A DNA stretch of 64,000 nt. It comes from Candidatus Micrarchaeia archaeon (lineage in GTDB: Archaea > Micrarchaeota > Micrarchaeia > Burarchaeales > Fermentimicrarchaeaceae). A program made the translations under genes and the position numbers. This document shows positions 8,886 to 52,458 of the stretch, piece after piece. The stretch is from NCBI GenBank assembly GCA_038871515.1, contig JAVZHX010000002.1, positions 141,815 to 205,814 of the forward strand, given 5' to 3'. The notes beneath the pieces were generated by a model that saw only the letters and a list, made by a program, of their open reading frames with translations, was not told the origin of the DNA and did no database searches. How positions within the stretch are numbered: position 1 is the stretch's first letter; every line of letters begins with the position of its first letter.

Positions 8886-8886
8886 A

Positions 8887-9880: not shown

Positions 9881-9968
9881 ATCTCACCTCGTTTTATTTA
9901 AAAGGTTGGATGAATTCACCAACTTATATAAAGCTGGATGAATTAAAAGCTTTGCTTGAGGTGAGCTG

Positions 9969-12340: not shown

Positions 12341-12352
12341 ATAATCCCTCCT

Positions 12353-13432: not shown

Positions 13433-13459
13433 ACTATAAATACGGGGGGTTTATATAAA

Positions 13460-17820: not shown

Positions 17821-17824
17821 ACGC

Positions 17825-18190
17825 TCACCTCTCAGAGATCCTCAGAACTTTTCTTGTATCGTAATACAAACCTGTGTTGAAAACTCCCCAGCCAATCAGA
17901 ACTGCATACGTGTTAACCTGCCCAAGCCAGAGCAGGAGAAATTTATTTATATTCAGAAGCAACCACAGGAAACTTAACGCAAATAATGGAAGGATGGTTA
18001 CAAGTATTCTCTCCTTTTTGAAAATTCCTTTATGAAATTTTAATGAAAGCGCAAGGAAACACCATACGTAGATAACTACAAATATGTCAGTCAATTCAAG
18101 CGAAGCATATGAGAGAAGAAAACCACCTGAAATGAGCAGGCAGCCCACAAGCATAAGTATCTGGCCAAAGGTTATCATTTCCTCTCCCAC
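17825..18190 (-). CDS. small membrane protein (4 TM), unknown function
   Basis: 121 aa, four hydrophobic helices. Lies between UbiD-like and UbiX genes with 16-nt overlap with ubiX. Confidence 0.4.
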   Translation of the reverse strand: MGEEMITFGQILMLVGCLLISGGFLLSYASLELTDIFVVIYVWCFLALSLKFHKGIFKKERILVTILPLFALSFLWLLLNINKFLLLWLGQVNTYAVLIGWGVFNTGLYYDTRKVLRISER

Positions 18191-19495: not shown

Positions 19496-20202
19496 ATGGA
19501 TATGTTGTTCATCCTCACCTCATTCAAAAACAATCTAGCATCAAGCTTCTCAATTGCTCTTATTGCAAGCTCATCCTTTTCTTTTGCGCTCTGCGCATCC
19601 TCAAAGTGAGTGAAATCTGAACTTGCGATTACCAAAACTTCTCTCTTTGCAGCTTGCGATGCTTTTATAATTGCCCTTGCGATATCATCTGCAACTTCAT
19701 AATCGCCCAAACCAATGCAGATTGGAACTGCTTTCACTTTTTTGTATAAAAACTGCAGGAAGGGAAGTTGAACCTCTGCTGAGTGCTCTCCATCATGCGC
19801 AACCTCATCAAAATCAACTACTCTGGAGTTTTTCTGAATTAACTTTCCAAGTTCAACATCATTCTCAACAACTCCAAGAGGAGTTTCCCAATCCTCTGTG
19901 GAAAGTGCAACCCCGCTTCCCCTTCCAGTGTGATTTGGGCAGAGTATGATGAAAGTTGGTGGTTTTGAGAAGTTTTCTGCGATTTCGCTGTAAGCGTAGG
20001 AAGCAACCCAGCCAGAATATACATAGCCGGCATGAGGTGATATGACTGCAAGTAGATTTTTCTTATCACCGAATTTTGGAAGTCCTGCTCCTCTCTTGAA
20101 ACACTCCTCAACCTCCTTTCTTAATCTCTCTTCTCCTGCTGGGTAGAAAGAACCTGCAACCGAAGGATAACGCATTTTACCACCATTAATTATACTGAGC
20201 AC
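19345..20202 (-). CDS. MEMO1-family protein (AmmeMemoRadiSam system protein B-like)
   Basis: MRYPSVAGSFYP N-terminus, ISPHAGYVYSG, and metal-site His/Asp pattern of the Memo/extradiol-dioxygenase-like fold. Probable start at MRYPS (about 20175). Confidence 0.75.
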   Translation of the reverse strand: MLSIINGGKMRYPSVAGSFYPAGEERLRKEVEECFKRGAGLPKFGDKKNLLAVISPHAGYVYSGWVASYAYSEIAENFSKPPTFIILCPNHTGRGSGVALSTEDWETPLGVVENDVELGKLIQKNSRVVDFDEVAHDGEHSAEVQLPFLQFLYKKVKAVPICIGLGDYEVADDIARAIIKASQAAKREVLVIASSDFTHFEDAQSAKEKDELAIRAIEKLDARLFLNEVRMNNISICGYAPIMATIIYSKLNGGKEAKVLKYANSGDVTKDYGEVVAYCSVAFPE

Positions 20203-21728: not shown

Positions 21729-22661
21729 GTGATGCTTATGGCCGGAGCAGTTGTAGAGGCTAGACCAAGCCTTATTGGGTCAACAATCTGCGGAGAGAAA
21801 ATTGAGCCACGTGAGAGGATAAAGGAGGATGGGAGCAGGGAAACCGTAAGCCCGATTTTCATGACGGGTAAGGAACTTGTTGTGAAAACAACCTTTTTCA
21901 CAGCGGTGTTCTCTCTGGATGGCAAAAGAAGTCTGGAGGGACCAGCTATAATGAAGGATAAATTTTCTGCCCAGTCAACATTTGCCCTGTTTAAAGCTGG
22001 TGATGAGTTGGGAGTGAAAATCACCTCAGAGAAGCCCAGAAAAGAGAGGTTGTTTGTTGAGGTGGATGGCAACAACGTGAATTACCGGCTTGGAGGACAC
22101 CCTAACGTTATATTCACCAACAACGGTGAAAAAGGCAGACTCGGTGATCCGTACATCAAGATAATCCCTACTCTCATTCCGAAACTTGGCGGGGAGCTGG
22201 GAGATGAAATAAGGAAGGAGCATAAAAACGCAAGCGAAATGTACTTGGCAGTGGCGAAGAAGCTTCAGGAGAAAAACCCTGATAAGGGGTATGCTGAAGG
22301 TTCTGGTGCGGATGTGGGAATGAACTTTATGAAAGAAAAAATTTTTGTGAAGATGGATGCGAATGGAAGAATAAGTGAGTTTGGGAGAGTAGATCAGAAG
22401 GATAGATTTTCTTTCTATATAACGGATAATGGTGGTGTCGGTGTTATGATAAAGCCACAGGATATCAAGAACCTCACTAGAGAGCTTGGGGATACGGAAA
22501 CAGGAGTTGGGGTAGGGATGGCGTATGGTAACATTCCGTATTATTTGCCGAAGGTGCAGTACTTCATAACTGAACTTGAAAGGTTGAGCGGGCACAGAGA
22601 GGTAGTTGAATTCATCGAAAGCGGAGGTAAACCTCCATTCCCAAAACAGACTCTCGCATAG
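21729..22661 (+). CDS. hypothetical protein (310 aa)
   Basis: Long ORF with good coding statistics. The antisense 22026..22691 ORF is rejected as its shadow. Confidence 0.45.
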   Translation: MMLMAGAVVEARPSLIGSTICGEKIEPRERIKEDGSRETVSPIFMTGKELVVKTTFFTAVFSLDGKRSLEGPAIMKDKFSAQSTFALFKAGDELGVKITSEKPRKERLFVEVDGNNVNYRLGGHPNVIFTNNGEKGRLGDPYIKIIPTLIPKLGGELGDEIRKEHKNASEMYLAVAKKLQEKNPDKGYAEGSGADVGMNFMKEKIFVKMDANGRISEFGRVDQKDRFSFYITDNGGVGVMIKPQDIKNLTRELGDTETGVGVGMAYGNIPYYLPKVQYFITELERLSGHREVVEFIESGGKPPFPKQTLA

Positions 22662-22895: not shown

Positions 22896-24049
22896 GCTTT
22901 GCACATAAATTCACCTTCACTGGAAAGTTACTCTCCTTCCAGACATTTATAAAGGCAAACACGGACCTTGTATTATGCTTGTCTCAAAAACGTTGAAATG
23001 CGAGGTTTTCAATCCAACAAAAAAGAAACTTTCACTGCTTACTCAGGAATACCAGAACTTCCAGATTTACGTGAGAAGTGGAAAGAACTTTGGGGTCTAC
23101 TCTTTGACAAAGGCAACATTTGACTTCAAGTACGAAAAGAAAGCAAAGAAGAAAAAGCAACCAATGCCACTCCATAACCGATCAACAAAGTTCAAAATCA
23201 CAAACAACAAGCTCACTCCTTACTGGTTCCGAGTTCCTGTTTATGGAAAAAGAGGTGGGATCTGGCTTCCAATAAAACTACATGAAAACATAGATTCTTC
23301 CTGGGAAGTAAGGGAAGCAAAAGTATTCAAAAGAAAGAAGGACTTCTGGATTTACATAACAATAAGAAAGGAAGTTCATCTCAAGACTTCATACTCCTCC
23401 ATCCTTGCCTTGGATGTTGGTGAAAAAGTGATAGCGACAGCCGTGCTGTCCAGCAAACGTAAGCCAATTTTCCTGGGCAGGGAGGTGAGAGGGATTAGGA
23501 GGCATCACGCCTGGTTGAGAAAAAGATTGCAGAAAAGAAAGATATTCAAGAAACTAAAGGAGATGAGAGGGAAGGAAAGAAGAAGAGTTGAGTTGGTTCT
23601 GCATGAAGTGTCAAAATACGTTGTGGAGCTGGCAGAAAGGAATAATTCAATAATTGTTTTGGGTGAGTTGAACGGAATAAGAAAAAAGAATAAGGGAAAG
23701 AGGTTGAACAGGATAATCAACTCATTTCCATTCAAAAAACTCTCCTTCTTCATTGAATACAAAGCACATGTGAAGGGAATTGCGGTTATAAAAGTTAAAG
23801 AGGATTATACAAGCAAGACATGCAGCAGATGTGGGGAGGAAGGAAAAAGAATAAAACAGGGTTTGTTCAAATGCTCTCATTGTAAATACCAGGTGAATGC
23901 AGATTATAATGGTGCGATGAATATCCTGAAGAGGTCCAGAAGCTACATGCTTCCGGACGGGGCTGTTGCTTTCAGCCCAGAACCGCCGATGACTGAGAAG
24001 ACGAGGGCGGAAGCATATAATATTTAAATTTATGTGCAAAGCATCAGAA
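22891..24049 (+). mobile_element. stand-alone tnpB insertion element bracketed by about 22-bp inverted repeats
   Basis: Left tttctGCTTTGCACATAAATT (about 22891-22911) and right AATTTATGTGCAAAGCatcagaaa (about 24028-24049) are reverse complements (16-bp perfect core plus flanks with one indel). Only one gene (tnpB) inside, no tnpA. Confidence 0.5.
22975..24027 (+). CDS. tnpB: TnpB-family RNA-guided endonuclease (IS200/IS605 OrfB-like)
   Basis: RuvC-I ILALDVGEK, RuvC-II VLGELNGIRK, zinc finger CSRCGEEG...CSHCKYQ, RuvC-III NADYNGAMNI. Confidence 0.85.
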   Translation: MLVSKTLKCEVFNPTKKKLSLLTQEYQNFQIYVRSGKNFGVYSLTKATFDFKYEKKAKKKKQPMPLHNRSTKFKITNNKLTPYWFRVPVYGKRGGIWLPIKLHENIDSSWEVREAKVFKRKKDFWIYITIRKEVHLKTSYSSILALDVGEKVIATAVLSSKRKPIFLGREVRGIRRHHAWLRKRLQKRKIFKKLKEMRGKERRRVELVLHEVSKYVVELAERNNSIIVLGELNGIRKKNKGKRLNRIINSFPFKKLSFFIEYKAHVKGIAVIKVKEDYTSKTCSRCGEEGKRIKQGLFKCSHCKYQVNADYNGAMNILKRSRSYMLPDGAVAFSPEPPMTEKTRAEAYNI

Positions 24050-24917: not shown

Positions 24918-26147
24918 TTGTGCCCCGCCCATCCTTCTTTGCTTCCCATCCTTTTTAAACTTTGGGGTGGGAGGATGTGGTTTGCAAACTTGTTTGGAAA
25001 AGAGGGGGTGAAAATTGGGGAGAGAAGAAGCGAGCTTTCCCTGACAAACAAATCGTACATAACAGAATACCATCCTCATGTTAGGGTGAAGCCAGTGATG
25101 AAATGGGAGTGGAGGAAAGCGAATGGCAAATACACAATTGACTTCAGCAAGGAAGCGAACCCACATGTGAATATAAGTGGGATGAGCGGGTTTGGGAAGT
25201 CAACTCTCTGCAAGAAGTTGATTGATGAAATAAGAGGGAAGCTGAAGCTGCCTGTTGCAATCTTTGATGTCCACTCGGAATACGTTGAGCTCACAAAACA
25301 GCTTAACGGTGAAGTTCACTCAGCAAAGGAGTCAAGCATAAACATGTGGGAGCTTGATGGAATGGCTCCTGCTGAGAGAATTGCGGAGAACGTTGGAATG
25401 CTGAAGAGAATTTTGAAGTTGGGTGACATACAGGCATACAGCTTGCTTGTATCAGCTGAGAAAGCATACGAAAGAAAGGGAATAATTCAAAGTGAAAAAA
25501 GCAGTTGGAGTAGAGAAGCGCCAACAATGCAGGATGTTTATGAGTGCGTGCTTGAGCACAATAAAAAGCAGGGATACGCTGGGCTGAGCAAGAGGCTTTA
25601 CCCTCTGCTGATGAGCAGTGTTTTTTCAGCAGAAACGTCTGTTTCATTCAAAAAAGTTTTGGATGGGTTGAATGACTTCAGCATGGCTGAGCTGAGAAGC
25701 AGCGAAGCGCAGGCAGTTTTCATAGAAACTTTTCTCAGAAAGCTCTACTCATACATGTTAAGCCAGAAGCTGGCGGATGAGACGAGATTATTTGTTGTGA
25801 TTGATGAGGCGCACAGGGTTTGCATAGCAGACGGAAGCGAGCTCTCCCTTCCAGGAAGGATTGTTTCAGAAGGAAGAAAGTATGGGGTGGGAGTGATAAC
25901 AAGCAACCAGATGGTTAAAAGTATAGACAGGGCGATTGTTGCAAACTCCGCTGTCACGTTTGCGTTCTACCAGAGGGAGCCAGAGGAGTTTGACTACGTG
26001 GCGAAACTGCTTGCAGGTGGAGAGGAGTATGAAAGAGAGGAAGCAGTGAGAAGTATGCTCAGAAACCTCAAGCAGTTCCAGTGCATTGCTTTAACTTCAA
26101 GAGAGAGAGAACCAACGGTTGTTGAAATTCCCTCCTGGAAAAATTAG
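24918..26147 (+). CDS. P-loop ATPase of the VirB4/VirD4/HerA (DUF87, AAA-like) superfamily
   Basis: Walker A ISGMSGFGKST followed by AIFDVHSEY (cf. iDpkGEY of T4SS ATPases). Walker B RLFVVIDEAHR. Probable start at MWFANLF (about 24975). Confidence 0.65.
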   Translation: MCPAHPSLLPILFKLWGGRMWFANLFGKEGVKIGERRSELSLTNKSYITEYHPHVRVKPVMKWEWRKANGKYTIDFSKEANPHVNISGMSGFGKSTLCKKLIDEIRGKLKLPVAIFDVHSEYVELTKQLNGEVHSAKESSINMWELDGMAPAERIAENVGMLKRILKLGDIQAYSLLVSAEKAYERKGIIQSEKSSWSREAPTMQDVYECVLEHNKKQGYAGLSKRLYPLLMSSVFSAETSVSFKKVLDGLNDFSMAELRSSEAQAVFIETFLRKLYSYMLSQKLADETRLFVVIDEAHRVCIADGSELSLPGRIVSEGRKYGVGVITSNQMVKSIDRAIVANSAVTFAFYQREPEEFDYVAKLLAGGEEYEREEAVRSMLRNLKQFQCIALTSREREPTVVEIPSWKN

Positions 26148-26638
26148 GCGAGCTTCCTCGCAGAAAGCTCTTTTTTTATTTTTTCAATTTCCTCCTGAAT
26201 TTCTGAGTGGTGATTTGAAATTATATTCTCAGCAAAATTCAAACCTTCCATTATCTCAGCATGCATCACTCTTTCTTCTTCCCTTCTGCTTCCCATCATC
26301 CTTGAGTGGGTTCTCATACCTTCTATGTAGAGATATGCTTTTGTGTCAACAATTGCTTTCACCTCATTTTCCTTCTGCTCAGGAGGAAGCTGCTTTCTTA
26401 ACTCCCTTATCTCTTTGGATGTTTTCTCAAGTTTATCATAAAGCTCAAGCACCCTGTCCATATCTTTTTTCAAAAGTTGAACTTCAAAAGGAGAGATTCT
26501 TCCCTCATTGAGTTTATTCTCATACTTCAGAACTTTCTTTTCAAGTGGAACAAGCTCCTTGCATACGTCAACTATTGATTTGTAGTGCTGAATGAATTTT
26601 TGATACGATTCCTCTTTTTCAAGTGTTTGAACGCTCAT
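26144..26638 (-). CDS. hypothetical coiled-coil protein (164 aa)
   Basis: Last gene of the long minus-strand array. Heptad-rich. Confidence 0.4.
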   Translation of the reverse strand: MSVQTLEKEESYQKFIQHYKSIVDVCKELVPLEKKVLKYENKLNEGRISPFEVQLLKKDMDRVLELYDKLEKTSKEIRELRKQLPPEQKENEVKAIVDTKAYLYIEGMRTHSRMMGSRREEERVMHAEIMEGLNFAENIISNHHSEIQEEIEKIKKELSARKLA

Positions 26639-26695: not shown

Positions 26696-27094
26696 CTAAG
26701 AGGATGCGCCTGTGAGTTCAAGCAGTTCGCTCTCCCTTGCTGCTCTCAGAACTAAAAGCTCATCTGCTTTATCATTCAAGCCAAGCTGTTTAAAATCTGG
26801 TATAAGAATGTCAAGTATCTCAATTCCATTCCTTAATTCATCCGCAAGCATATTCTGGAGTTTTTTTCTTTCCTCCTCAAGTTTCTTTCTTTCCTCTCCG
26901 TCTTTTGTTTCCTCAAGCAGCAAGGAGTTCAGCTGAAGTTGGAATTTTAGTTTATTCAGTCTCAGCTCAGATATCTCAAATGCTTCGGCAGGTGAAGAAG
27001 GTGTTTTGAAAAAGAGAAGCATATCCGTATTTCTTATCAGCTTTCTCAGCTTTCTTTTCATAAGTTTGCGAATTGCTTCCTTTTGCATAGCCAC
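26696..27094 (-). CDS. hypothetical coiled-coil protein (132 aa)
   Basis: K/E/L-rich helical protein, 5 nt downstream of the giant coiled-coil gene. Confidence 0.4.
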   Translation of the reverse strand: MAMQKEAIRKLMKRKLRKLIRNTDMLLFFKTPSSPAEAFEISELRLNKLKFQLQLNSLLLEETKDGEERKKLEEERKKLQNMLADELRNGIEILDILIPDFKQLGLNDKADELLVLRAARESELLELTGASS

Positions 27095-27099
27095 TACCT

Positions 27100-30000
27100 T
27101 TAGTACCTAGCTCTACTAATACTACCATAACTCATTTGCGTTGTTACAAGTTGATCGATTCTTTTAATGGCTTGATCAGCTGCTATTGAGAATCCTCTTT
27201 CTTCGCGGAAGCTTCTTGGGATTAAACCATATCTAATACCCGCTGGGTTGTAAGCAAACTTTCTTATTGCAATCACATCCTTAGCTGGCTCGTAGAATGC
27301 AACTGTTGTTCCTAGTTCGGAACCCAGCATCTCCCTAACCTGCTTTGGGTATGGGATTGGGATAATTGAGCCGTACATCTGCATCATTTGGTACTGAATT
27401 ACCTTTTGAACTTCTGGCGGCACTCTTGGGTTCTCAGCCATTGTTAACTTGAGCTCATCCCATCCTCCAGGCCACTCAGCGCTTATTGCAAGTCTTTTTC
27501 CCCAGTATGAGAGATATGTGGATGGGCCCTCAAAGATACTTTTGAAAGCGCGTATATGCCAAGGCAATCCCACATCGGGCAGTTCAAGTGCCTCCTGCCA
27601 TGGTTCTATATCCCAGTATCTGTTAAGCCTCAAACCCTTCCATACATAGGCAGTTCCATAAACCTGGCTTTCCCAAACTGACTGCATAGTTCTTGCAGGT
27701 CCACCTGAACCTCTGCCTGTCAGATGGGAGCTCCACTCTATTATTTTATTCATTGTTCTACGAACCCCCTCCTCTCCTGTTGAGGTGGGGTACCCTGTCA
27801 TTTCCCACTCGCCAACCTTTCTTGTACCTGTCTTTGCCCCGTATATTCCGTAAGCACCAGCAGTTATCACAGCTGCCGCTCCCACTCCTATAAATGGCAT
27901 TGCGAACGGCGCAGCAACTGTTGCTGCAAAGAGAAGTGTTTTTCCATGCTGAACCGCAAACTTCTCAATATTTTCAACTGCTTTTGAAGCGAAACCGGTT
28001 GCACGTTCGGATGAAACTCCGTGTATGCCAAGCCTTATTCTCAAATCTTTATCAACGGATTCCTCTATAAACTTGTGGATGCGCTCCTCGCTTCCTGGGC
28101 CTGCCCATTGAGTCATCTTTCTATAAGGCGCATACATGTATGTCGCATCGTAAGTATCCTTGAAGCTCTTCCAATCCTTGCAAACCTCAATTAACTCTTT
28201 CTGTTTCTCCCTTCTCTCTTCAAGCTTCTCTTGCAGTTCGCTGTTTAGTTCAACTGCCTCAGCATCAATTTTACCTTTTTTCTCCTTCAGCTTCTTCTCA
28301 AGTTCGCTAATTTCAGATGAAATTCCTTTTATTTCATTTCGGAGCTTGACGGCTGTTGCTTCGTACTTTGCAAGTGCATTCTCAGATACACTTCTGTCGA
28401 GCTGGCCGGCCCACCATCTGGCTTCCTCCCAGAATCCTCTTCCCTTCCTTTTATCCTCAGGGTACTCCTCCCTTAATTTCTTGAGTATTTCTGCTGTCTG
28501 TGATTGCATAAGCCCTCCGCTTGCTGCCTCTCTCTGCAGTAGTTCTGCTGCCTGCATAACAAGCGCAAATCTCTCCAATTTATCCTCCATTCTCTTAAGT
28601 CTCTCATACCTCTTTTCTCTCTCGGGTTGTGTTAAAGGCAGTTCCCCAAACTCCAAAACGTTTGTCAGCTTATCCCTCTCTGCCTCCAGCTCCTTCTTGC
28701 GGTTCTCCAGCATCTCAATTCTCTCTCTCCACCCCGCTTTCCTGGCTGACTCCAACTCAGCTTCTACCGCCCTTATTCTTAAATTAACTTCTTGCAGCTC
28801 ATATTTTGCAGTTTCAGGCAGAGTTTTGCGAGCTTCTTCAATCTCGCGATACAACTTCACGTATTTATCCATAGTAGTCGGGTCTAAGAACTGCCCATAG
28901 GTGAGATTCGTTAGGTATAACATGCTGCTTAAAGTTCTCTCCTTTTTCTTCAAGTGAGCGTCCAGCTCCTTTGTAACTTTTTCGTATTCCTCTATATTCT
29001 TAGCTCCAAACTCCTTCAGTTTGGATCTATCTATAACTCCAATTCCTGCTTTTTCTTTAAGTTCTTCCTTATCCTTCTCAAGCTTTGTGATTATCGCCTG
29101 CACCTCTATTAAATCTCGGTGCATCCCTGTTTCACTTCCCCCAAGGCTTGTCCCAGCTTCTTCCATTCTCCTGCGAGTCCACTCGGCAAGATTGATTGTT
29201 TCAAGTTTGTCCCATTTGTTCTTAAGTTTGCTGTATGTCGCCCTCAGAGCTTTTTCATACTGGGATTTAACTCGCTCCCTCTCTTCCCCCTCAAGCTTAT
29301 CTGTATTATTATACTTTTTCACCTCGCTTGCTTTTTCCACCCCAAGCGTTTTTATCAAACCCAAAACATATGGGTTTGGTTTTTCAAGCGCATCAGCTCT
29401 CAATATGCTCATCTCAGAGAGAACAGCCTCCCTATCGCGCAGTATTTTCTGCCCACCGACTCGTATGATAGTTCTCTCAGCAGTTTCGTCCACTGCTCGT
29501 TGTAAGTCAAAGCGGCGCCTATCAATTGCTCTGCGAAGATCGTTTATATCATTCTCCTTTTTCAGTATTGATAGTTCAAGCTTATGCAATCTGTCCTCAA
29601 GTTTTTTATAATCATTAGTGTTCTTCTTCCCTGCTTTTTCAAGTTTCATCATTCTATCCTCAATTTTCTTTTTATTTTCCTCATCCTTCCTCAATTTCTC
29701 CTCAATTGTATTTATTCCACGCTCTAGATTTCTTTTTACTTCATCCCTATCTCTGTCGAATGCTTCCAAACGTCTCTGGGCAAGCAAAGCTTGATTCAGC
29801 ATAAGATGTGTTGTTATCAGTTCAACATTTCTCTCCGCCTTAGCCAACTCCTTTTTGGCATCTCTTATCTGCAGGTTTGTTCTAGCAAGCTCTTCCATCT
29901 TCGCCTGTAACTCCTTTTCCTTTGCCTTATACTCTTTTGTGTTTGGATTTAATTTTTCAAGCTGTGATTTGAGATTTTCGCATTCCTCCTTCAACTCAGC

Positions 30001-32463
30001 TCTTTTTGCGTAGAGAGGTTTCTTCTCAAATATTCCCTTAAGTTTCTTCTGCTTTTCTTCAACTTCCATTTGCTGCTTTCCAAGCAATCTCATAAAGTGT
30101 TGTTTCTTCATCTCCTCTTCCGAAAGTTTGGATATTGTAGGGCCAATAATATTCTCAAACTCTGATGCAATCTGCCTTAAATTCTGGGTTTTCTGAAAAC
30201 CGCTTGCCGCAAATGCAACCCCCCTTATTGCAAGCGCTTCCGGCGTATAGTGCCCTTTTGCTGCCTCTGCTCTTTGACCCCACATATCAAACAAGCGCTC
30301 CACGCCAAGCCATGTTGCTCGGTCATGTTCCGGAGTTAAATAGGGTTTTACAGTATGGCGATAGTACGAATCCTCTAGCTTTCTGTAACCGGACATAACT
30401 TTAAGCGCTTTCTCAAGTGGTTTTACTCGGGCTTGGTGCTCCTTCCAAGTGATGTTATGTTTGTTGTAATATAGGTCATCCAGATTGCTTATTTTTTCTT
30501 TTATAGCTGATATTGCCTCCCTTGTCATATTCACTTTGTCACTCCTATACTGCCCCATCAAAGATGCTCCAATTATGCTTGGTGCAATTTTTGACAACTC
30601 ACTCATTTTCTTATCAAGTTCCTTTGTTTTTTTCTTGTACTCCTCAACTGAAATTTGCCCAGCGACTAACTTCGTGTTCAGATCTTTCAGCTGAGTGCGT
30701 ACTTCATTTAATTTATCCCTAGCATCTGGAGGAAGCAGGATGTTGTTAACTTCCCCAATTTTCTTTTGGAATTGATTTATTTTATCAGTCAGCTCATCGC
30801 TTCGGCCTTTCTTACTGAGCTTTTCGATATCTTTCGCCAGCCCCTTTATCTCCTTTTTTAATATGTTGAGTTCTCTCTTCTGCGTTTTGGTAAGTCCTCT
30901 CTTCGATTTTGTATCTCTCAAAACTCTATCGATAATCCCTCCCCTCATATCTTCCATCAGTCTTTTCTGATGCTCAACAGTGTCTCTCAGCAACCCTGCA
31001 ACTTGTGCAGGAGTGAGGGTTGGGTCCTTGAGCATTGCAAGGTTTTTCTCAATATGCTCTCTTCTTCTTTCTGCAATAGTAACTCTTGCAATGATATTTG
31101 GCTTGAATCTCGCTCTTTCATAGCGCACCCTTGCAACTCTGTATGGAACATTCTGCAGTAAAGATGAAACAAACCCAGTTGTGCTTGAGATGAACCAACC
31201 CTTTAGGGTTGCTTTCAGAACTTCCTTTCTGCTCAACTGCTCAGGGTTGAAGACTCTTACGAGCATTCCCCTCTGGCTGAGCCGATCATATCTTTCTTTT
31301 AACCCTTTCAGTTTTTTTTCATCCTCCTTGCTGAATTGTGATGGGTTCTTATTCTTTTTCTCTTCAAGTTTTCGGATTTCTCTTCTAAGTTTCCATCTTT
31401 GAGATGGTTTTACTATAATTGTTGATATTGGGTATTTCACTCCTAGGTAGGCAAAGCTCGCGGCAGCAGCAGGTGCATATGCCATCATCTTAATTCTTCC
31501 AATCACCCCCCCAACATCCGCAAGCTGTTTTCTGTATTCATCCATCTGCTTGATTAAACCATCATAAACTGCAACTTTCTTTTCGGCTTCTCTTATTTTC
31601 TTATTCAGAGTTGCAACATCCTTCCCCAACTTAGTTCTGTAAAGTCTTTTTTCAAGGTTTCCAATTTCCTTGCTGAGAGCAGCAAGACGCGCCATATCCT
31701 TGTCACTAAGTTTCTCTCCTCTCAGCTGCTTTAACTTTAGATTAGCATGCTCTCTCTTCTTCTCTCTTATGGCTTCCCTTAGACTGACAAAATTTTTCAG
31801 GTTTTTCAGCTCTCTTTTTTCTTGGGCAGTTAATCCTTTATCCTTTTTCTTCTCCTCAAGCTCTGTTATTCTATTCCTTGCCCCTTGTAGGTTCATTACA
31901 CTAGCAAGACTGGTTGCCAACATACTACGTAAGCTCTTCACTTCGCTTTCTTTCCTAGTCTTCTCTCTTTCAATTCTGCCTTCATAACCGCCACCCCTTT
32001 TTCCCTTTGATAACGCGTATAAAGCACCCCTATCTGCCATTGTTTTTAGTGTTTTCACACCTTCCTTTGCTACCTTTGAACCGTACTTCCCACCACTCGC
32101 CTTTGAAACAACTGTTGCAGCACCCTTTGCCATCTTGTTAGCAACCCATCCAAAACCTCTTGTTAGGTAATTTCCTCCTCCGAGCTGATCCCTCTTCTTC
32201 GCAACAGTGTCAAATCCACCAGAGGTGAACGATTTAAAGTGGTAGGAAGTCGACTTTATTTCAGCAGGTGGTTTTGAGATGGATATGTCAAACCCAACAA
32301 GGGGGCTTCTTCCCTGAGCAATCATACCCGCCATAAGCAGAGCAAGAAGGAGGAAGAAGGGGAAGCAGATTGATATGTCGCCCATGCTCGCGTATGAAGC
32401 ATTTGCAAGCATTATGAGCAATAACAAAACGAATGGAACTCGGAGTAGTGGTTGGTTAACCAT
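27100..32463 (-). CDS. giant (1787 aa) coiled-coil membrane protein
   Basis: N-terminal pair of hydrophobic helices, about 1300 aa of K/E/R-rich heptad coiled coil, central TM hairpin (LLFAATVAAPFAMPFIGVGAAAVITAGAYGIYGA), then an approximately 350-aa Trp/Tyr-rich C-terminal globular domain. Confidence 0.6.
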   Translation of the reverse strand: MVNQPLLRVPFVLLLLIMLANASYASMGDISICFPFFLLLALLMAGMIAQGRSPLVGFDISISKPPAEIKSTSYHFKSFTSGGFDTVAKKRDQLGGGNYLTRGFGWVANKMAKGAATVVSKASGGKYGSKVAKEGVKTLKTMADRGALYALSKGKRGGGYEGRIEREKTRKESEVKSLRSMLATSLASVMNLQGARNRITELEEKKKDKGLTAQEKRELKNLKNFVSLREAIREKKREHANLKLKQLRGEKLSDKDMARLAALSKEIGNLEKRLYRTKLGKDVATLNKKIREAEKKVAVYDGLIKQMDEYRKQLADVGGVIGRIKMMAYAPAAAASFAYLGVKYPISTIIVKPSQRWKLRREIRKLEEKKNKNPSQFSKEDEKKLKGLKERYDRLSQRGMLVRVFNPEQLSRKEVLKATLKGWFISSTTGFVSSLLQNVPYRVARVRYERARFKPNIIARVTIAERRREHIEKNLAMLKDPTLTPAQVAGLLRDTVEHQKRLMEDMRGGIIDRVLRDTKSKRGLTKTQKRELNILKKEIKGLAKDIEKLSKKGRSDELTDKINQFQKKIGEVNNILLPPDARDKLNEVRTQLKDLNTKLVAGQISVEEYKKKTKELDKKMSELSKIAPSIIGASLMGQYRSDKVNMTREAISAIKEKISNLDDLYYNKHNITWKEHQARVKPLEKALKVMSGYRKLEDSYYRHTVKPYLTPEHDRATWLGVERLFDMWGQRAEAAKGHYTPEALAIRGVAFAASGFQKTQNLRQIASEFENIIGPTISKLSEEEMKKQHFMRLLGKQQMEVEEKQKKLKGIFEKKPLYAKRAELKEECENLKSQLEKLNPNTKEYKAKEKELQAKMEELARTNLQIRDAKKELAKAERNVELITTHLMLNQALLAQRRLEAFDRDRDEVKRNLERGINTIEEKLRKDEENKKKIEDRMMKLEKAGKKNTNDYKKLEDRLHKLELSILKKENDINDLRRAIDRRRFDLQRAVDETAERTIIRVGGQKILRDREAVLSEMSILRADALEKPNPYVLGLIKTLGVEKASEVKKYNNTDKLEGEERERVKSQYEKALRATYSKLKNKWDKLETINLAEWTRRRMEEAGTSLGGSETGMHRDLIEVQAIITKLEKDKEELKEKAGIGVIDRSKLKEFGAKNIEEYEKVTKELDAHLKKKERTLSSMLYLTNLTYGQFLDPTTMDKYVKLYREIEEARKTLPETAKYELQEVNLRIRAVEAELESARKAGWRERIEMLENRKKELEAERDKLTNVLEFGELPLTQPEREKRYERLKRMEDKLERFALVMQAAELLQREAASGGLMQSQTAEILKKLREEYPEDKRKGRGFWEEARWWAGQLDRSVSENALAKYEATAVKLRNEIKGISSEISELEKKLKEKKGKIDAEAVELNSELQEKLEERREKQKELIEVCKDWKSFKDTYDATYMYAPYRKMTQWAGPGSEERIHKFIEESVDKDLRIRLGIHGVSSERATGFASKAVENIEKFAVQHGKTLLFAATVAAPFAMPFIGVGAAAVITAGAYGIYGAKTGTRKVGEWEMTGYPTSTGEEGVRRTMNKIIEWSSHLTGRGSGGPARTMQSVWESQVYGTAYVWKGLRLNRYWDIEPWQEALELPDVGLPWHIRAFKSIFEGPSTYLSYWGKRLAISAEWPGGWDELKLTMAENPRVPPEVQKVIQYQMMQMYGSIIPIPYPKQVREMLGSELGTTVAFYEPAKDVIAIRKFAYNPAGIRYGLIPRSFREERGFSIAADQAIKRIDQLVTTQMSYGSISRARY

Positions 32464-32484: not shown

Positions 32485-35400
32485 TTACTTATTAAACTTT
32501 CGTTTTTTCATCAAAAGCAGCAAAGCAACAATCAGTATAAGCGGTTCAAGCACAGGGAAGCTGCCGATTGCAACAGATACGCCACCTGCGTAGAATGGTT
32601 TGATTTCTATGGAGGGAGCATAAATATCTGTTCCCCAGAAAACTCCAAATAGTAACCTTCTTCCAAACCCATAGATTTTGAAGGTTGTGTTCACGTGCCC
32701 TGTTGCATTTGTTATGAAGTACGGGTTGCCGGTTTCCAAGTGAGAGAGTATTCCGTACTGATGACAGACTGGGTTAGGCAGACAGTCACCAGTGCCTCCA
32801 GGTTCATCTATCCAGTCTGGGCAGGAGCAGTTGCTCTCCTCAGGTGCAATTGGGCAGACGCCTGAAACAGCTGGGTTGCAGTTAACTGGGTCAAGCTGGC
32901 TTCCATCCCCGTACAGAGTTCTGCTTGAGTTCTGAACGTACAGCTCCATTACTTGACCTGGAAGGGGTGTATTGGGCTTCTCCTCAGGCTTATCCCATCT
33001 CTGGTATAACAGCTGCGCAGTCACATACACAATTGTCCTGTTTATGTTTTGTGGGTCTCTGACTGTTTGGACTTGCATTATTATGGCAGTTGGCTGTCTC
33101 AACCAGATTGTGTATGGAACAATGAATGTATTGTTGAACCTATCAAAGAATCTGTAATGGAAGTTGTGCAAGCCCAATGAGTCATTATCCGGTATATTCA
33201 ATACAACTGAATCCTGCTGTGAGTAGATGAAGGTGCCTGATTTGTTCTGGTAGAAACCAAGCACAAAGTCGTTTGGAACAACGTTAATAACACCTATCTG
33301 CTCCGGAGTAACCGCAGTTGATAACCCATCCAGATAAAGAGGAGCAGTTGTTACATTGAAATGCTCGCCTTCGTTCCCTTCAATTTCTATAGAGAGCACA
33401 TGTGTAAATGTTTCGTTTGTCTCAAATGAAACAAGGGAAACGCCTGTGGAGGTGGTGACATTGAACGAGTTGCTGAAGCCAACTGTCACGTCGTTTTCTG
33501 CTTTCAGCATCTCATTGGTAATCCCCTCACCAAGCATCACATAACCGCTCCAAACTCCATTGTAGAATGGGCCAATCTGCCTTGGGCAGATGTTGTTTCG
33601 TGTGTAGGCACCGCCAGTATCAGATAGAGTTGCATTGCCGTTGAATTGGCAGATATTGCCAGGTGGGTAAATTCCAAGCGCATCAACACTACATCCATAA
33701 TGATACTGCTCGTTCCACGGCGGTTTAGTTTCGTCTGTTATATCTTTAAACCAGAAGCATACCGCATCAACTGTCCCGTTTGATAAACTTATCTCGTGCA
33801 GGGGGCCCGAACCGGGAGCTGTTCGGGCGTAGAATACGTAGCTTGAATTATCCTTATATGGGGGCAGTATCTTCTCCCAGCAGTCAGTAGCATTTGATAC
33901 ATAAAGCTCTATTTCGGTGTAATCCTTTGAACATGTTATGTTAAACCTGAATTCCTTAACTGATAGTGATCGGCCGAACGTTCCAAAGATGCCGGGGACG
34001 AAACCGCCATAGGAGCTTGACTCCCAGAAACATGCTGTTTTTCCATCTGGCGTACCAAGCATATTTGTGGGTGGAGCATCACTTCTGGAGGGGTTTAGAC
34101 AACCGCTTGACTCAGCGTTGATAACTGGGTAGGTTGTCCCCAAAGGAACAGTGCGGATTCTTACTTGGAAAGGAACTCCTGCGGTTTGGGGACTTGTAAT
34201 TGGGTCAAACTGAAAACCACATCCTAGTAGAACTGAATCTGGTTGCACTACTGCTGGGCTTGGAAGGGCACATGTGAGTGCAGGTGTGCCAACTGAACTC
34301 TCTTCAACAATTACGTTGTTGTTGCGCGTTCCCTTTATTGTATACCCAATTGTCCTGTCAACTGATATCATATTGGAGTTTATTCTCAACCTTCTTGGGT
34401 TTGGGAGTATTGTTGCAATTGAGGAGTACGCAGTGTAATTTGAACTTGGCAAGGATATTCTTGCCAGCTCATTTTTTGTAGTTGCAGTTCTGAATATCAG
34501 GGTTTCACCTTTAATTCCATCCTTCACCTCAATTATATAGACTGCGCTGTATGGGCCACCTAAACCAAGATAGTCCATTGAGCTGTAACTGCTAAGTTCA
34601 ACCGAGCCATTTATCAAATTGTAATTGCCGCTTGTGTCTGTCCCAACAATCGTTATCCTTGTTTTGTTATTTGAATCATGGTCCCTTGTTGATGCAACTT
34701 CAATTGATTCATTGAAGAGAGAGACATCGATTCTTGGGCATACAAAGGAAGGCGCGCATGGCGGACCACTTGGGTGCATCCCAACACCACATTTTAAATA
34801 ATCAGATTGGCAGAAACCACCGATGCATTTTCCCTCAGAACAGTTGATGTCCGCGGTGCATGGAATACAACTTCCAACTGTGAAATTATCAACGCGCAGT
34901 ATCACGTCAGGGTCGGTATAAACCTCAAACTGATCACCAAGATAGCCCTTCCCGCTGACAGAGCTTATGAACATGAAGTTTCTGTTCCTTGGGTCGTCTG
35001 GAACAACCTGCACCATTCCTCGTGGAGGCATATATGTGAATGATGGAACCGCTGTGTAGGTATTTACATCGTAGTAGGCATACTGCCCTTTCCATAGGAA
35101 AAGCTCGCCTATTATGCTTGAACCGAATGGGTCTTTGGAGAATTGGATAAGACAGCCATTTTCACATCCACCCCAAACTTCCACAAGTAGAACATCTGTT
35201 TCGCTAGCAGCGTGAGGGGCAGCGGATACCCAACCGTCGGAGGTTTGGTATGAAATTATACTCCAATCCATCGGAGGCCAGGAGAAAATACGGAATGTGC
35301 CGTTGCCATCAGAGCGGAGATAAAGGCTGGTGGAGGTTATACCTCTGAATGGAAGTGGGTTAGGCAGATCTTTACCCATGAAATCTGCAGCTCCAGATAT

Positions 35401-38400
35401 TTTGCTTTCATTATCATTTTCAGGTGGGATGTCAATTCTTCTGCTTGCGTTGAATCCATGAATTGCGAGCAGGGTTGGGCCGCTTATCTTAACTGGTTTG
35501 ATAAGGAGGGATGAGGGGAACGGAGCGTAAGGTTCACCAAGGAGCGGGTACCTAGTGGGTGAGTCTATATATTCATCATACCCGGTTTGCGATACAACTG
35601 TATTTGGCGGTATAGACTTTTTGAACCAAGCGCGCGTGTTGTGGCACATACTGCTATTCCTTCCAAAAATATCCTCAAAGCATATTCCATTATCAGTTGA
35701 GAGGTTTGCGGGCATTATGAAGAGGGATGCTTCCTCAGGTGCTCCTGTTATGGATATTGCGTGGATTATGTAGCAGTAACCAAATGGAGTGTAGCTTGAA
35801 TTTGTTACTGTTATTGAGTAAGTTACATTAACCCTTGCGCTTGTCTCGCACAGTATTGAAACAAGCAAGGAGGAGACGTTTGTTATTGCTTGGTAGTAAT
35901 AATCTGAAGCACCATCAGGTGGTGGATCCTGTGGAGCGAATGGCAGTGGGTTTGGCTCCTTGTGCACTGGACTGAACACATATGCAAAAGGATAGCTCCA
36001 GTTCATTGTGTTATTGAATGGAATTGTTTTGTTTTTTACCACACCACCTTCAACTACAGTTAAAACGTACGGGTTTTTGTTAGGATCGTTTCCAAACATG
36101 TTCGTAGTTGGATACTCAAAAATATAGAGTGGATTTTGGTGCCCGTACTGATCAACAGTTGGTGTTGTTGAGATGTATTGATAACCGTAATACTGATTCT
36201 GCATTATGTTGAATGTTTTTCTGTAGCTTGCGTTAAGTATCCACTGGTGGTCATCTGGCGGAGCCATGTAGTTGCTTACTCTGTCCATCATAACGAAATG
36301 CTTGTAGAAGAATCTGTTTGTAAGGTAGTTGTAAGCAAGATAAGGAAGGGTGCTTGGTGTTTTCTTTGGTGGGGTTAGGTAGGCTGGCCTTGTGAGAGAG
36401 AAGTGGGAGCCGCCTCCCTCAACAAGCCTCTCAAGGTGGTTGCTGTAGCTAGTTATATTGAGCTGTTTGTTTATCACGGAGGTGCCGGAGAGGGAGCCTC
36501 CGCTTGGGCAGCCGTTGGAGTATTTTCTTATTGTAAACGTGTAATCAAACCTCAGGAACGCAGTGATGTTTGTTGCAAGGAAGTTTCTTCTGTAAATAGG
36601 GCTGAGCGGGGCGGAGAGCTTAACCACTGGACTTCCTGGAGCAATACTCCCAGAAGTGAGTAATCCCTCTATGTTGGAGTATTCTGTTGTTTTTGTTTTC
36701 TCAACCTCTCCCTCGCATACGGAGGGCTCAACTGCTCCTTCCTGAGAGCAACCCTCGCATGAAACTCCTGCCATCATTGACTCCTTTATTAAATCCGGAT
36801 ACCCTATTACATCATCTGGGTGGTCAACCGCTGGTGACTCCACCATTGAGCCAGAATAAACAAAGGAGTATGAGCCACCTGGGAAATTATAGCTTTGGTC
36901 TTGAATTCCTGGTTGGAATTTGTACTTGACTACCATGTTGCGTTCTCCTTTCAATGCAATGTATACGTTAAACTTGTTGTCAACATCTATTCCATGGGTT
37001 TCGGATGATTTACCTTGCACATACTGCAAGCCTGCTGAGAGTAGGCCCCATGGGTCGTACCATGCTTTCCAGAGAGTAACGTATTCTTTTGGCTCAATCA
37101 CAACTTTCGCTCTGTACTGCTTCCCAGGAGTTTCAATTGTGTCAAATGCAAGAATTCTAGTCATCTCATATTCTTGCGTGTCGTACCAAAGGCATGCATT
37201 GCAGTTATTTGGATCGGGGCACCAGAGGCATCCCCCATCCTGAGTGCAGCCAGTGCCTGGGTTTCTGTAACAACCAATTTTAAATCCGAATATATCTAAA
37301 CAGCCCGGCATACAGCAACCCAAACACTCCATTGGGAAGCCACTACAGCCAAAGTAACCAGTTCTAACTGGAAATGCCATATAGTCGATCACAAACAAGT
37401 AACCCTTTCTGTATTTAATCCCCCTCAGATAGTGATACCCTCCTTCCTCACCCCAAAAGCTCTGAGTTTCATTTACATTATCAACATATGTTTTAGTTCC
37501 TGCTTCATTTGTGCATGGCGGATCTAAAATAACTCCTAGTGGGTTCAGCTCTTGTAATTCAATTCCACCATCACCCCCAAAGATGCTGATTTTAGAAACT
37601 TCCTGGGCTGGGTTGGATGCGTTGTACTGATGTATAAACGGATAACCAACCCAGAAGCACCCCCACCACTCGCAGTGGCGTTTCTTATCCCTCACTACAA
37701 ACAGACTTGCACCATCCTCGGTAACCGCTATATCTCGCGCTGTTCCCTCCCAGGCTTCTGTGCAGTTGTTGCTTGCATTCAGCTTGAACTCCTTATCGTA
37801 TTTGTTTATGCAGATGTGGTTGAATACTGTATCGGGGTAGGTGTTGCCAAGCACGTACAAATTGCCCCAGCTATCCGTGTCTAAACCATACGGGAAGAAG
37901 TACTGGCCATCCTCAGTAATTGTATCAATTTCAGTTACAAAGTGAATTGTTGGTGGGTAACTTCTAACTATTTTCACAACTTGCACTTTGGGTGAGTTAG
38001 TTAATGCAATGAATATATTGCCTCTGTTATCATACGCAATTGCCTGTGCATTCGAATCAATTAGGGGTGTGGCGCCAGGTATTGGCTTGCCGTTTATCAA
38101 CCCATTATAATCCTCCAGCCATGAGGAGGGTACCCTTAAAGTGAACTTTCCAAGCCTCCCTCCATCTTTGTGGTCAACAACAAGCAGTGCTTCTGGGGAG
38201 CGCAACTCGTGTGGGTTGAGAATTGAATCGTTTGTTATGTTGTATGGCTCAAGCGCAGTTAAAGGAAGAGTTACTGTTATGTTGAAGTAATCAGTATATA
38301 CATTTCCTGGTGCGAACTGAACGTCATATCTATCACTGCCAACGCACACGCTTGATGTTCCGCTGAATGGGTAGTAACCCCAACCCCAGAGGACTTCTGG

Positions 38401-50481: not shown

Positions 50482-50489
50482 TTTTTCAC

Positions 50490-52450: not shown

Positions 52451-52458
52451 TTTTTCAC

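Follow-up and report, generated by a model that had tools for sequence, protein, structure and literature searches.

In DPANN archaea, which live attached to other archaea, the protein components of contact and exchange structures, among them the organelles and filaments seen by cryo-electron tomography (cryo-ET), are essentially unknown (PMC11420986; bioRxiv 10.1101/2024.05.20.594898). A stretch of 64,000 nucleotides from a Candidatus Micrarchaeia archaeon (assembly GCA_038871515.1, contig JAVZHX010000002.1, positions 141,815 to 205,814; hereafter the window) raises the question of whether such a structure may be encoded there, and of what part would be played in it by a protein of 1787 amino acids (aa) whose gene occupies positions 27100-32463 of the minus strand. 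An earlier note, made from the letters of the window alone, had seen in this protein a ruler or stalk of an apparatus, or a remnant of a virus-like element. Our analysis places the gene in a family of its own, in which a near-frozen anchor module is joined to the fastest-diverging, recombining protein body in 43 kb, an unusual combination, indicative of a protein that works at an interface where selection keeps changing. The reading that we tentatively favour is that of a cytoplasmic scaffold attached to the membrane at both ends.

A gene family restricted to Micrarchaeota

The open reading frame (ORF) runs without interruption from ATG to stop over 1787 codons, exactly the length first reported for it. 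Its product can be aligned end to end with 14 full-length homologues (1446-2089 aa, 28-61% identity) and the ORF is therefore a real and intact gene. All homologues with a named source are from Micrarchaeota. Altogether the family comprises about 16 proteins of 1370-2089 aa and is found in Fermentimicrarchaeum-like Micrarchaeota (DPANN) only, the lineage of its carriers at NCBI being Nanobdellati; Microcaldota; Fermentimicrarchaeales. A HMMER search with the C-terminal 348 aa against 1.84 billion representative proteins returned 16 matches, all of them family members or fragments, and the same 348 residues are 100% matched by a partial protein of a Candidatus Micrarchaeia metagenome-assembled genome. 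Scanning of 185,579 species genomes confirmed the family in five species, all Micrarchaeota, and no cultured member of the clade was present among the homologues found. A metagenome scan for further alleles confirmed three loci, one of them a duplicate, which is too few for population analysis.

Neither the whole 1787-aa protein nor the C-termini of 13 family members matched any Pfam family at E ≤ 1, TrbI (PF03743), TrbL and TraG_N included. No enzyme family and no nuclease, peptidase or toxin motif was obtained for the C-terminal domain from Pfam or from profile searches of the Protein Data Bank (PDB), and the non-metabolic nature proposed for the protein is supported. Searches of the PDB with phmmer and with profiles of the C- and N-terminal modules gave nothing below E = 0.1, and Foldseek with the N-terminal model retrieved from the PDB generic helical bundles only (E ≥ 0.38). 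The only matches in NCBIfam were to SMC-like coiled coils (17-26 bits against cut-offs of 300-567). In PHROGs no tape-measure family was matched, the single match being phrog_8246 (function unknown, E = 1e-4) over a coiled-coil stretch, and PADLOC returned for this protein only JetC/LmuB coiled-coil noise of at most 20 bits. By tblastn, the full protein had no match in 50,697 phage genomes and its C-terminal part had none in 72,556 plasmids. Nothing at threshold in these collections supports the kinship to tape-measure, needle-ruler, VirB10 or TraG-N proteins that had been suggested; VirB6/TraG-N proteins moreover have a polytopic N-terminal domain with at least five transmembrane (TM) segments, whereas the 1787-aa protein has two N-terminal segments and one C-proximal block. 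In the literature on Micrarchaeota and DPANN gene clusters, archaeal 'dark matter' and attachment organelles we found no description of the family or of the gene module in which it lies. We regard the family as a previously undescribed, narrowly distributed version of the membrane-tethered coiled-coil scaffold theme.

The gene is the third from last in a co-directional array that extends from about 57.3 kb down to 26.1 kb. As had been noticed, it stands between the gene of a giant protein of 2700 aa and the array terminus, with two small genes (132 and 164 codons) following it; a gene for a HerA-type ATPase converges on the array from the other side. Only 21 nt separate it from the giant gene and 5-11 nt from the 132-aa gene. 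A TATA-like TTTAATAA is located about 30 nt upstream of its ATG and, together with the insertion of a TnpB gene that is tolerated at this point in one relative (locus L020), suggests that the gene has its own promoter. Two plus-strand ORFs antisense to it, at 28160-28900 (246 aa) and 29021-29611 (196 aa), are not genes but mirror the Lys/Glu-rich coding strand, which makes their translations rich in Ser, Leu and Phe. The purine-rich coding of the 1787-aa gene likewise accounts for a strong negative AT and GC skew at 28-32 kb.

Domain organisation of the 1787-aa protein

By hydropathy, the protein has two hydrophobic segments near its N-terminus, at aa 6-24 and aa 30-48, and one Gly/Ala-rich block at about aa 1506-1541. 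The N-terminal membrane insertion recognised from the start consists of a signal peptide and one TM anchor. The signal peptide (aa 1-25, 32389-32463, minus strand) has a basic N-end and a hydrophobic core and is probably cleaved, as judged from a signal-peptidase motif, [S/A/V]-[Y/F/S]-A with S after the cleavage point, that fits the -3/-1 rule and occurs in 14 of the 14 members having an N-terminus. In every one of these an invariant hydrophobic helix begins four to five residues past the motif. This is the near-invariant anchor ISICFPFFLLLALLMAGMI (aa 30-48, 32320-32376, minus strand), predicted from hydropathy and alignment to lie N-out/C-in. Inspection of the N-terminus gave no lipobox and no type IV prepilin motif. 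The idea that the N-terminal hairpin might be a VirB2-like pilin module was rejected, its alignment to the pilin-like proteins of the operon upstream being at the level of chance (z 0.7-1.4).

Behind the anchor comes a conserved juxtamembrane module (aa 49-165, 31969-32319, minus strand) with the motif SPLVGFDIS.SKPP and then a Gly/Lys-rich basic segment. Residues 61-165 include 20 K/R against 7 D/E and form amphipathic stretches with a hydrophobic moment (muH) of up to 0.59. This N-terminal module, overlooked in the earlier note, is the most conserved part of the protein, conservation being 0.6-0.9 over aa 14-171. There are 43 invariant positions in aa 27-159, among them MGDISICFPFFLLLA.L.A.M..QG.SPLVGFDIS...PP and the Gly-rich basic stretch.

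The body (aa 166-1500, 27964-31968, minus strand) is variable, with indel hot spots in relatives and a conservation of 0.25-0.55 in the family alignment, compared with 0.55-0.63 for aa 1510-1710. It contains 295 K/R and 225 D/E. The description of this part as a coiled coil of about 1300 aa, or a heptad stalk of extreme length, was overstated. Heptad scores exceed the 95th percentile of composition-matched sequences in 38% of residues 150-1440, in nine segments amounting to about 490 aa (281-310, 524-557, 580-631, 638-668, 823-998, which is the longest, 1110-1139, 1154-1183, 1245-1272 and 1360-1437), and there are just five runs of 40 or more residues free of Pro and Gly, 268 aa in total, the longest being 75 aa. 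AlphaFold2 was run on aa 1-480 and aa 1395-1787 with family alignments of 15-17 sequences. The first model (predicted local distance difference test, pLDDT, 65 overall, 80-89 over aa 160-320) is all-alpha and splits aa 84-480 into helices of about 10-50 residues. The body is thus all-alpha, charged and segmented, and no single rod. With pLDDT values of 65 and, for the second model, 52, both too low for the purpose, no fold was assigned from either.

The Gly/Ala-rich hydrophobic block (aa 1506-1541, 27841-27948, minus strand) was reported previously as a central TM hairpin; it does exist, close to the C-terminal end and not in the centre. Throughout the family it measures 35-40 aa and holds the invariant residues A1513, P1519, P1523 and G1526. 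Basic residues follow it in most members, and the flank on its N-side is near neutral. The second AlphaFold2 model shows, at low confidence, a helix-break-helix at this position. The block is probably a re-entrant or TM helical hairpin, the alternative being a single kinked span.

Next to it lies an orphan C-terminal domain (aa 1546-1740, 27244-27828, minus strand), aromatic/Gly/Pro-rich and predicted to be mixed alpha/small beta. Its motifs are T-x-R-G(-S-G) at 1582-1587, VGLPW at about 1630, ENP..PE at about 1678-1684, and Q1692/G1698. The globular, Trp-rich end domain of 350 aa that the earlier note had described is accordingly a non-coiled, aromatic-rich region of about 240 aa (1546-1787). 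Ten Trp are indeed present in aa 1501-1787 of the window copy, whereas family-wide W1597 alone is nearly invariant and the Trp of the VGLPW motif is the majority residue only. The tail (aa 1741-1787, 27103-27243, minus strand) is poorly conserved and predicted to be helical, with 4 K/R against 1 D/E in the window copy; it is K/R-rich in several relatives. In P0018, the most divergent family member, the C-terminal domain is followed by about 170 aa of additional charged, Lys/Glu-rich sequence; this protein still has the hairpin and both the TxRGxGS and the ENP motifs.

Predicted membrane topology

Sidedness was assessed from insertion rules and composition. The two N-terminal hydrophobic segments are 5-8 residues apart, preceded by a basic N-end and followed by a segment of net charge +13. 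From this two-segment layout and the basic stretch behind it, the second helix (aa 30-48) must run out-to-in, whether the leader is cleaved or not.

The net charge is +59 to +115 in all 15 family members. Charged residues make up 38% of the body and S/T/N 13.5%, against 27-33% and 11-16% in cytoplasmic proteins and 17-22% and 19-24% in ectodomains. N-glycosylation sequons stand at or near expectation in the 15 members, slightly above it in four, and are never enriched in the manner of surface proteins. In the window genome that enrichment is about 2-3-fold, as seen in the giant (57 observed, 26.6 expected), in a 619-aa protein (16 and 5.4) and in an 806-aa protein (9 and 5.0). Composition, net charge, lack of sequon enrichment and the topology rules place the body of about 1350 aa most likely in the cytoplasm and not in an external stalk. 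For the C-proximal block, the central P..P..G, the basic residues that follow it, the two helices of the AlphaFold2 model and the charged tails favour a re-entrant hairpin with a cytoplasmic C-terminal domain.

Divergence and mosaic evolution

The window was compared over 43 kb with a close relative (a 118.8-kb contig). The two are fully alignable at 74-88% nucleotide identity except in three places: a stretch at 21.6-24.0 kb, an intein, and a valley at 26700-32050 in which identity falls to 65-74% or the sequences cannot be aligned. This valley corresponds to the 132-aa gene and the 1787-aa gene minus its first 120 codons or so. The 1787-aa protein is 49% identical between the two genomes, against 72-95% for the products of 25 other genes (79% for the giant). 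By the NG86 method, nonsynonymous divergence (dN) of the neighbours is 0.03-0.19 and synonymous divergence (dS) 0.6-1.4, the exception being the short 132-aa gene with a saturated dS of 3.07. The 1787-aa gene has a dN of 0.38 with dS saturated in the body, and its codons 1-60 have a dN of 0.04 and a dS of 0.40.

In all 10 pairwise comparisons among five genomes the 1787-aa gene is the most divergent of the five genes of its module, and the divergence of the 132-aa gene tracks it, not the 164-aa or HerA genes. Because the 132-aa gene travels with the 1787-aa gene, a physical partnership of their products is suggested, with the 132-aa protein as a candidate binding partner.

The variation is also mosaic. 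Between loci L010 and L014, the HerA protein is 100% and the 164-aa protein 98% identical, and the 3' end of the giant gene together with the first 320 nt or so of the 1787-aa homologue is 90-99% identical, mostly at least 94%; the rest of the homologue is unalignable or 55-80% identical down to its end. The small downstream gene stands at 81-85%, and the 164-aa gene again shows 99-100%. Being a 12-kb contig from short reads, L014 could be chimeric, but segment similarities are incongruent among independently assembled members as well. Thus, the N-terminal module of the window copy is nearest to P0004 (88%), and its first body segment and its C-terminal domain are nearest to P0002 (61 vs 40% and 77 vs 51%).

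The L019/L020 pair, in which dS is unsaturated, gave a dN/dS ratio (ω) of 0.40 for the 1787-aa homologue (0.20-0.68 per 150 codons), against 0.07-0.26 for its neighbours; no 150-codon segment exceeded 0.68 in this pair, and positive selection was accordingly not detected. In the same pair the giant (33-8726 in L019, 2-7840 in L020) is 62% identical with a dS of 1.16, and most flanking genes have a dS of 0.07-0.30, one of 0.64. Allele replacement is therefore seen there at the giant, and this gene too is replacement-prone.

Family members differ in length (1446-2089 aa), the indel hot spots lying within the body, and no tandem or long direct DNA repeats were found beneath the variation. We read the whole pattern as one of weak purifying selection on a spacer-like body combined with recombinational exchange of cassettes, in which the N-terminal module and the 164-aa/HerA genes would serve as flanks. 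The accessory character once attributed to this region would then apply to the gene body, which behaves as a hypervariable replacement cassette, and not to the location, which is core.

CagY of Helicobacter pylori, a giant VirB10-family component of the type IV secretion system (T4SS) of about 1900 aa, is largely helical and membrane-anchored and varies rapidly between strains by recombination. The two proteins are alike in size, helicity, membrane anchoring, rapid variation and a T4SS-type locus. CagY has a VirB10/TrbI beta-barrel end and in-frame DNA repeats, neither of which was found in the 1787-aa protein, and the body of the latter is predicted to be cytoplasmic. Repeat-driven variation of the CagY kind is ruled out by the lack of tandem or long direct repeats.

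Synteny of the locus

Every locus bearing a family member has the same order of genes: giant, family member, a gene for about 130 aa, a gene for about 165 aa, and the convergent HerA ATPase. Past this module the same housekeeping genes are usually found, and the five genes stay together even where others have been inserted. The module lies beside mevalonate genes in at least five species, including a complete 1.18-Mb genome; its locus is a core chromosomal position and not a mobile island.

Upstream in the array is an operon that we call T4SS/Ced-like. Distant Micrarchaeota (Anstonellaceae and others) have a six-gene core of it, coding for a 269-aa TM protein, an ATPase and proteins of about 98, 130, 255 and 870 aa, past which unrelated genes are found and the giant and the 1787-aa family are absent. 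As the core occurs elsewhere without them, the giant, the 1787-aa protein, the two small proteins and the second ATPase constitute a clade-specific add-on, and the 1787-aa family is not a conserved component of the apparatus. The locus as a whole represents a concrete, conserved candidate for an envelope apparatus in Micrarchaeota, made of a phylum-wide minimal core and a clade-specific addition. That the 1787-aa protein is an element of such an apparatus, as proposed at the outset, is reasonable given the tight co-directional array that it shares with the giant, downstream of VirB4/HerA-type ATPase, pilin-like and polytopic genes; the stalk that formed the other half of that proposal is, as an external structure, not supported, topology rules, composition and sequons placing the long body inside the cell.

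Four genes of the add-on surround the 1787-aa gene. The 132-aa gene (26696-27094, minus strand), which starts 5-11 nt after its stop, and the 164-aa gene (26144-26638, minus strand), the last of the array, encode putative cytoplasmic coiled-coil proteins. The convergent ATPase (24918-26147, plus strand) is a soluble HerA/DUF87 protein of 409 aa; like the 164-aa gene it belongs to every locus that carries the module. It matches best CedD/CedB, the ATPase domains of DndH/DptH, and HerA, and it gives generic DndH/mad8/HerA ATPase-domain matches in PADLOC. The giant (32485-40587, minus strand) has a signal peptide, a C-terminal TM segment, 65 Cys and a cytoplasmic KRKFNK tail, the tail and the last 650 aa or so being conserved.

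Proposed role and alternative explanations

The model that accounts best for these observations, although we hold it with less than even confidence, is that the 1787-aa protein acts in the cytoplasm as a scaffold or tether with membrane anchors at its two ends, as part of the add-on by which this clade extends a T4SS/Ced-like envelope machine. Its N-terminus would be inserted by the signal peptide and probably cleaved at the conserved A-x-A site, whereupon the helix of aa 30-48 would anchor it N-out/C-in and the Gly/Lys-rich amphipathic segment would settle on the inner face of the membrane. About 1350 residues of segmented, strongly basic alpha-helix, part of it coiled coil, would follow; the Pro/Gly-kinked hairpin of aa 1506-1541 would dip back into the membrane, and the orphan domain of about 200 aa and the short tail would end the protein on the cytoplasmic side. 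It could thus form a flexible sub-membrane scaffold for an assembly of the giant glycosylated surface protein, two small coiled-coil partners and the soluble HerA-type ATPase, appended to the phylum-wide minimal machine and linking the surface adhesin/translocon to the cytoplasmic ATPase. The large positive charge might hold DNA or acidic lipid at the site; with two ATPases of the DNA-pump type nearby, such binding is plausible. The anchors would carry the sequence constraint and the spacer-like body would be swapped between strains as a cassette with the 132-aa gene. The invariant N-terminal module and the locus offer specific handles on the cell-cell interface of a symbiont.

In this reading the protein would work most like membrane-anchored coiled-coil scaffolds known elsewhere. 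HMW2, of the terminal organelle of Mycoplasma pneumoniae, is a giant, mostly coiled-coil cytoplasmic protein of about 1800 aa from a wall-less, genome-reduced, host-attached microbe; small partner proteins are encoded alongside it, and it builds an attachment structure with giant surface adhesins. The 1787-aa protein resembles it as a giant coiled-coil protein predicted to be cytoplasmic, with small candidate partners and a giant surface protein, but has no sequence relation to it. HMW2 lacks a signal peptide and TM anchors, is not notably basic and belongs to an attachment structure, whereas none is linked to the 1787-aa family. Bacterial EzrA and eukaryotic golgins such as giantin combine, in the same way, a TM anchor and a long, segmented cytoplasmic spacer with fast divergence and conserved anchors (PMC5082667). 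They have one anchor, whereas the 1787-aa protein adds to it a second hydrophobic hairpin; its orphan end domain and its extreme positive charge also set it apart, and it is not detectably related to them.

Several points weigh against the scaffold model. Hypervariability and allele replacement are met with more often in surface-exposed or conflict proteins than in scaffolds inside the cell. The C-terminal domain, being aromatic/Gly/Pro-rich with 22.7% charged residues, is ectodomain-like in composition and, should the hydrophobic block be a single span, may lie outside the cell. The surface proteins used for the comparison of composition are beta-rich, and a high charge is found in extracellular coiled coils too, for example in streptococcal M proteins. 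As to the link with the apparatus, the six-gene core of other Micrarchaeota shows that the 1787-aa gene is dispensable for the core machine, its adjacency could reflect a shared ancestry of gene order and not function, and in L020 a TnpB gene (7842-8948) separates the giant from the 1787-aa homologue. The T4SS-like label itself depends on one ATPase and on sub-threshold pilin matches. The role is read from anatomy and context, and in a small family, neither a homologue of known function nor a confident three-dimensional model (pLDDT 52 and 65) having been obtained. What the analysis establishes is the gene and its family, the domain anatomy, the phyletic range, the synteny, and the rate and mosaic pattern of divergence; topology, the scaffold role, the functional tie to the T4SS-like operon and any binding of DNA are inferred from these.

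Of the competing explanations, all unlikely in our judgement, the one that survives best makes the protein a membrane-anchored cytoskeletal or nucleoid tether, concerned with shape, division or DNA anchoring and unrelated to the neighbouring apparatus. Synteny embraces the whole region, housekeeping genes included, so that adjacency alone is weak functional evidence; the T4SS-like core does without the gene elsewhere, the TATA-like element and the TnpB insertion suggest an independent promoter, and a very basic coiled-coil protein could bind DNA. For a housekeeping tether of this kind it would be surprising that no gene in 43 kb evolves faster, that its alleles are swapped and that its phyletic range is so narrow. 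The gaps of 5-21 nt with translational coupling to the 132-aa gene, and the cohesion of the five-gene module despite insertions, also speak for a common function with the neighbours.

An external or injected stalk, ruler or intercellular filament, whose body would be exported or threaded through the T4SS-like portal, is a doubtful proposition; in it the conserved hydrophobic N-terminus would enter the membrane of the target (host) and the C-proximal block would stay anchored in the producer. It would account for the perfectly conserved cleavage motif followed by an invariant hydrophobic peptide, and for a mosaic hypervariability like that of exposed proteins, beside an adhesin-like giant and pilin-like genes; if extended, the protein could span more than 100 nm, and filaments of unknown composition occur in DPANN contact organelles (PMC11420986). 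What argues for the cytoplasmic scaffold instead is that insertion rules put the region behind the second helix, with its +13 basic stretch, inside the cell, and that sequons are not enriched in the 15 members as they are in surface proteins of the same genome. The helices are moreover short and broken by Pro/Gly so that no continuous rod results, a length varying between 1446 and 2089 aa is a poor property for a ruler, and no segment has ω above 1. A more daring form of this proposal, and a distinctly improbable one, would cast the protein as the shaft or harpoon in a bridge between a DPANN cell and its host. Once the signal peptide had been removed, the invariant hydrophobic N-terminus would be driven into the host membrane by the HerA/VirB4-type ATPases through the T4SS-like portal, the long basic helical body forming the intercellular filament, perhaps with DNA, and the swapping of cassettes tracking host or virus pressure. 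Were it true, it would provide the first molecular identity for the filaments seen by cryo-ET in DPANN-host contacts.

It is improbable, too, that the locus is a module of inter-microbial conflict or defence, polymorphic-toxin-like or a HerA-associated sensor, with the body or C-terminus as specificity or effector part and the 132-aa protein as immunity protein or partner. The layout of a conserved N-terminus, a variable remainder and a co-varying small downstream gene does recall polymorphic toxins, and for the neighbouring HerA ATPase the highest scores are those to the defence ATPases DndH/DptH and mad8. Yet the C-terminal domain is homologous throughout the family and keeps its motifs, where unrelated toxin tips would be expected, and variability spans the body from about codon 105 and not from a pre-toxin boundary. 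The PADLOC matches to the 1787-aa protein are coiled-coil noise, nuclease, peptidase and toxin motifs were not found, and the gene occupies one fixed syntenic core position across species and does not occur sporadically.

A phage or virus tape-measure protein, or the remnant of an integrated virus-like element, is very improbable. Long tape measures such as Pb2 of phage T5 have, like this protein, a long helical region, hydrophobic segments and a C-terminal domain, a superficial likeness of architecture; in addition, the neighbouring HerA ATPase matches an FtsK-type 'terminase' family in PHROGs and a TnpB gene lies close by. Tape measures do not typically carry a signal peptide, however, and the searches of phage genomes and PHROGs gave no similarity. 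The surrounding genes encode a surface giant, coiled-coil proteins, HerA ATPases and housekeeping functions, with no capsid, portal, tail or integrase genes among them and no cluster for tail morphogenesis. The position by the mevalonate genes is conserved in at least five species, and TnpB is a window-specific insertion.

An SMC/Rad50-type chromosome-organising ATPase, which might be suggested by NCBI's name for one homologue and by weak matches to coiled coils of SMC-like proteins in NCBIfam, PADLOC and Foldseek, can be dismissed, since those matches cover coiled-coil stretches only, the N-terminus is a signal peptide and TM segment without Walker A, and the C-terminus lacks a signature/Walker B head. 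The homologue so named is P0007 of Ca. Fermentimicrarchaeum limneticum (complete genome CP058998.1; L001 10001-15709), publicly called 'chromosome segregation protein SMC'. This is a coiled-coil-driven mis-annotation of a protein without ATPase heads, and is corrected here.

The T4SS/Ced-like operon and other neighbouring genes

The ATPase of the core is of the VirB4/HerA type (44670-47813, minus strand), with a 509-aa extein that matches the Pfam families DUF87 and AAA_10. Against the PDB the extein gives HerA at E = 1.5e-12 and, along the full length of the ATPase domain, VirB4 (4ag5) at E = 2e-9, and matches to CedB/CedD are at E of about 1e-14. It is interrupted by a 538-aa intein (45981-47594) with a LAGLIDADG homing endonuclease, which lies inside the Walker A P-loop, beginning with S after GITGAGK and ending with HN before SYF. 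The ATPase of the close relative (L012, 94.5% identity, 502 aa) is without it. Directly downstream, a 99-aa ORF (44370-44669, minus strand) is 38% identical to the C-terminal 82 residues of the ATPase and is a free-standing duplicate of its terminal domain, 93% conserved in the close relative.

Four small proteins are encoded between this ATPase and the 806-aa protein (40644-43064, minus strand), the last of the phylum-wide six-gene core. The latter is bitopic, with an ectodomain, a TM segment at 566-584 and a cytoplasmic domain of about 220 aa. This domain (about aa 585-806) has no family match and, when the C-termini of the window protein and its F. limneticum counterpart are placed side by side, looks well conserved; the two proteins are 65% identical over 591 aligned residues.

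Upstream of the ATPase, two paralogous proteins of 279 and 323 aa (47823-49630, minus strand) have a TM hairpin and a soluble domain. The family of the 279-aa protein is phylum-wide with more than 200 clusters, and a profile search of the PDB revealed no known relatives. They are preceded by six tandem paralogous polytopic membrane proteins (49477-56503, minus strand) of 310-631 aa with about 5-9 TM segments, 21-31% identical over their main alignments and without a Pfam match, which by position may be analogues of VirB6/CedA. One of them (53631-55526) has an additional N-terminal part of about 340 aa.

At the head of the array are two small paralogous proteins (56568-56987 and 56962-57312, minus strand; 66-69% identical) with a signal peptide and two hydrophobic helices joined by a basic loop. 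The overlap of the two ORFs means that their true starts are probably further downstream. The first matches T4SS_pilin (E = 4.5e-4, 20.7 bits against a cut-off of 26.6, profile positions 3-70 of 71) and TrbC/VirB2 (E = 8.9e-4, 19.9 bits against 27.9); its paralogue gives a weaker match and a relative in L013 an independent weak match to TrbC. All of these are below threshold, although the arrangement of signal peptide and two helices suits a pilin of the VirB2/TrbC type.

Ced, a crenarchaeal DNA importer, uses paired HerA-clade ATPases along with two-helix pilins and VirB6-like polytopic proteins (PMC11868833), and the window shares with it and with minimal archaeal T4SSs two HerA-clade/VirB4-like ATPases, two-helix pilin-like proteins and polytopic proteins (PMC11868833; PMC9905601), a likeness of the parts-list kind only where the polytopic proteins are concerned. 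Neither a giant coiled-coil protein nor a giant surface protein is part of Ced, and the ATPases of the window reach about 41-53 bits against Ced cut-offs of 600-700. As these scores are far below the family cut-offs, the operon is named T4SS/Ced-like and not Ced.

Other features of the window

A TnpB gene, whose product has a Cas12f1-like TNB domain, and an adjacent 310-aa ORF account for two plus-strand reading frames (21729-22661 and 22975-24027) within the stretch of 21.6-24.0 kb, hardly any of which can be aligned with the close relative. At the equivalent position F. limneticum has a weak homologue (31.6% identity) of the 310-aa ORF, so that only the TnpB gene is clearly an insertion specific to the window.

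The 619-aa protein (61401-63260, minus strand) has a signal peptide, a TM anchor at its C-terminus and sequons enriched 3-fold, which makes it a candidate for an S-layer or surface glycoprotein, and a gene for a PMT-type glycosyltransferase (57806-59317) is found near it. A class II aminoacyl-tRNA synthetase gene lies at 60 kb. Scans of the window for tRNAs and Rfam families gave no match.

Genes of the archaeal (modified) mevalonate pathway occupy 1624-20202 and code for a GHMP kinase, an AA_kinase (IPK-like), FMN_dh (IDI2-like), AcnX, UbiD and a UbiX-type flavoprotein. The cluster is syntenic across relatives and notable in a genome-reduced DPANN lineage.

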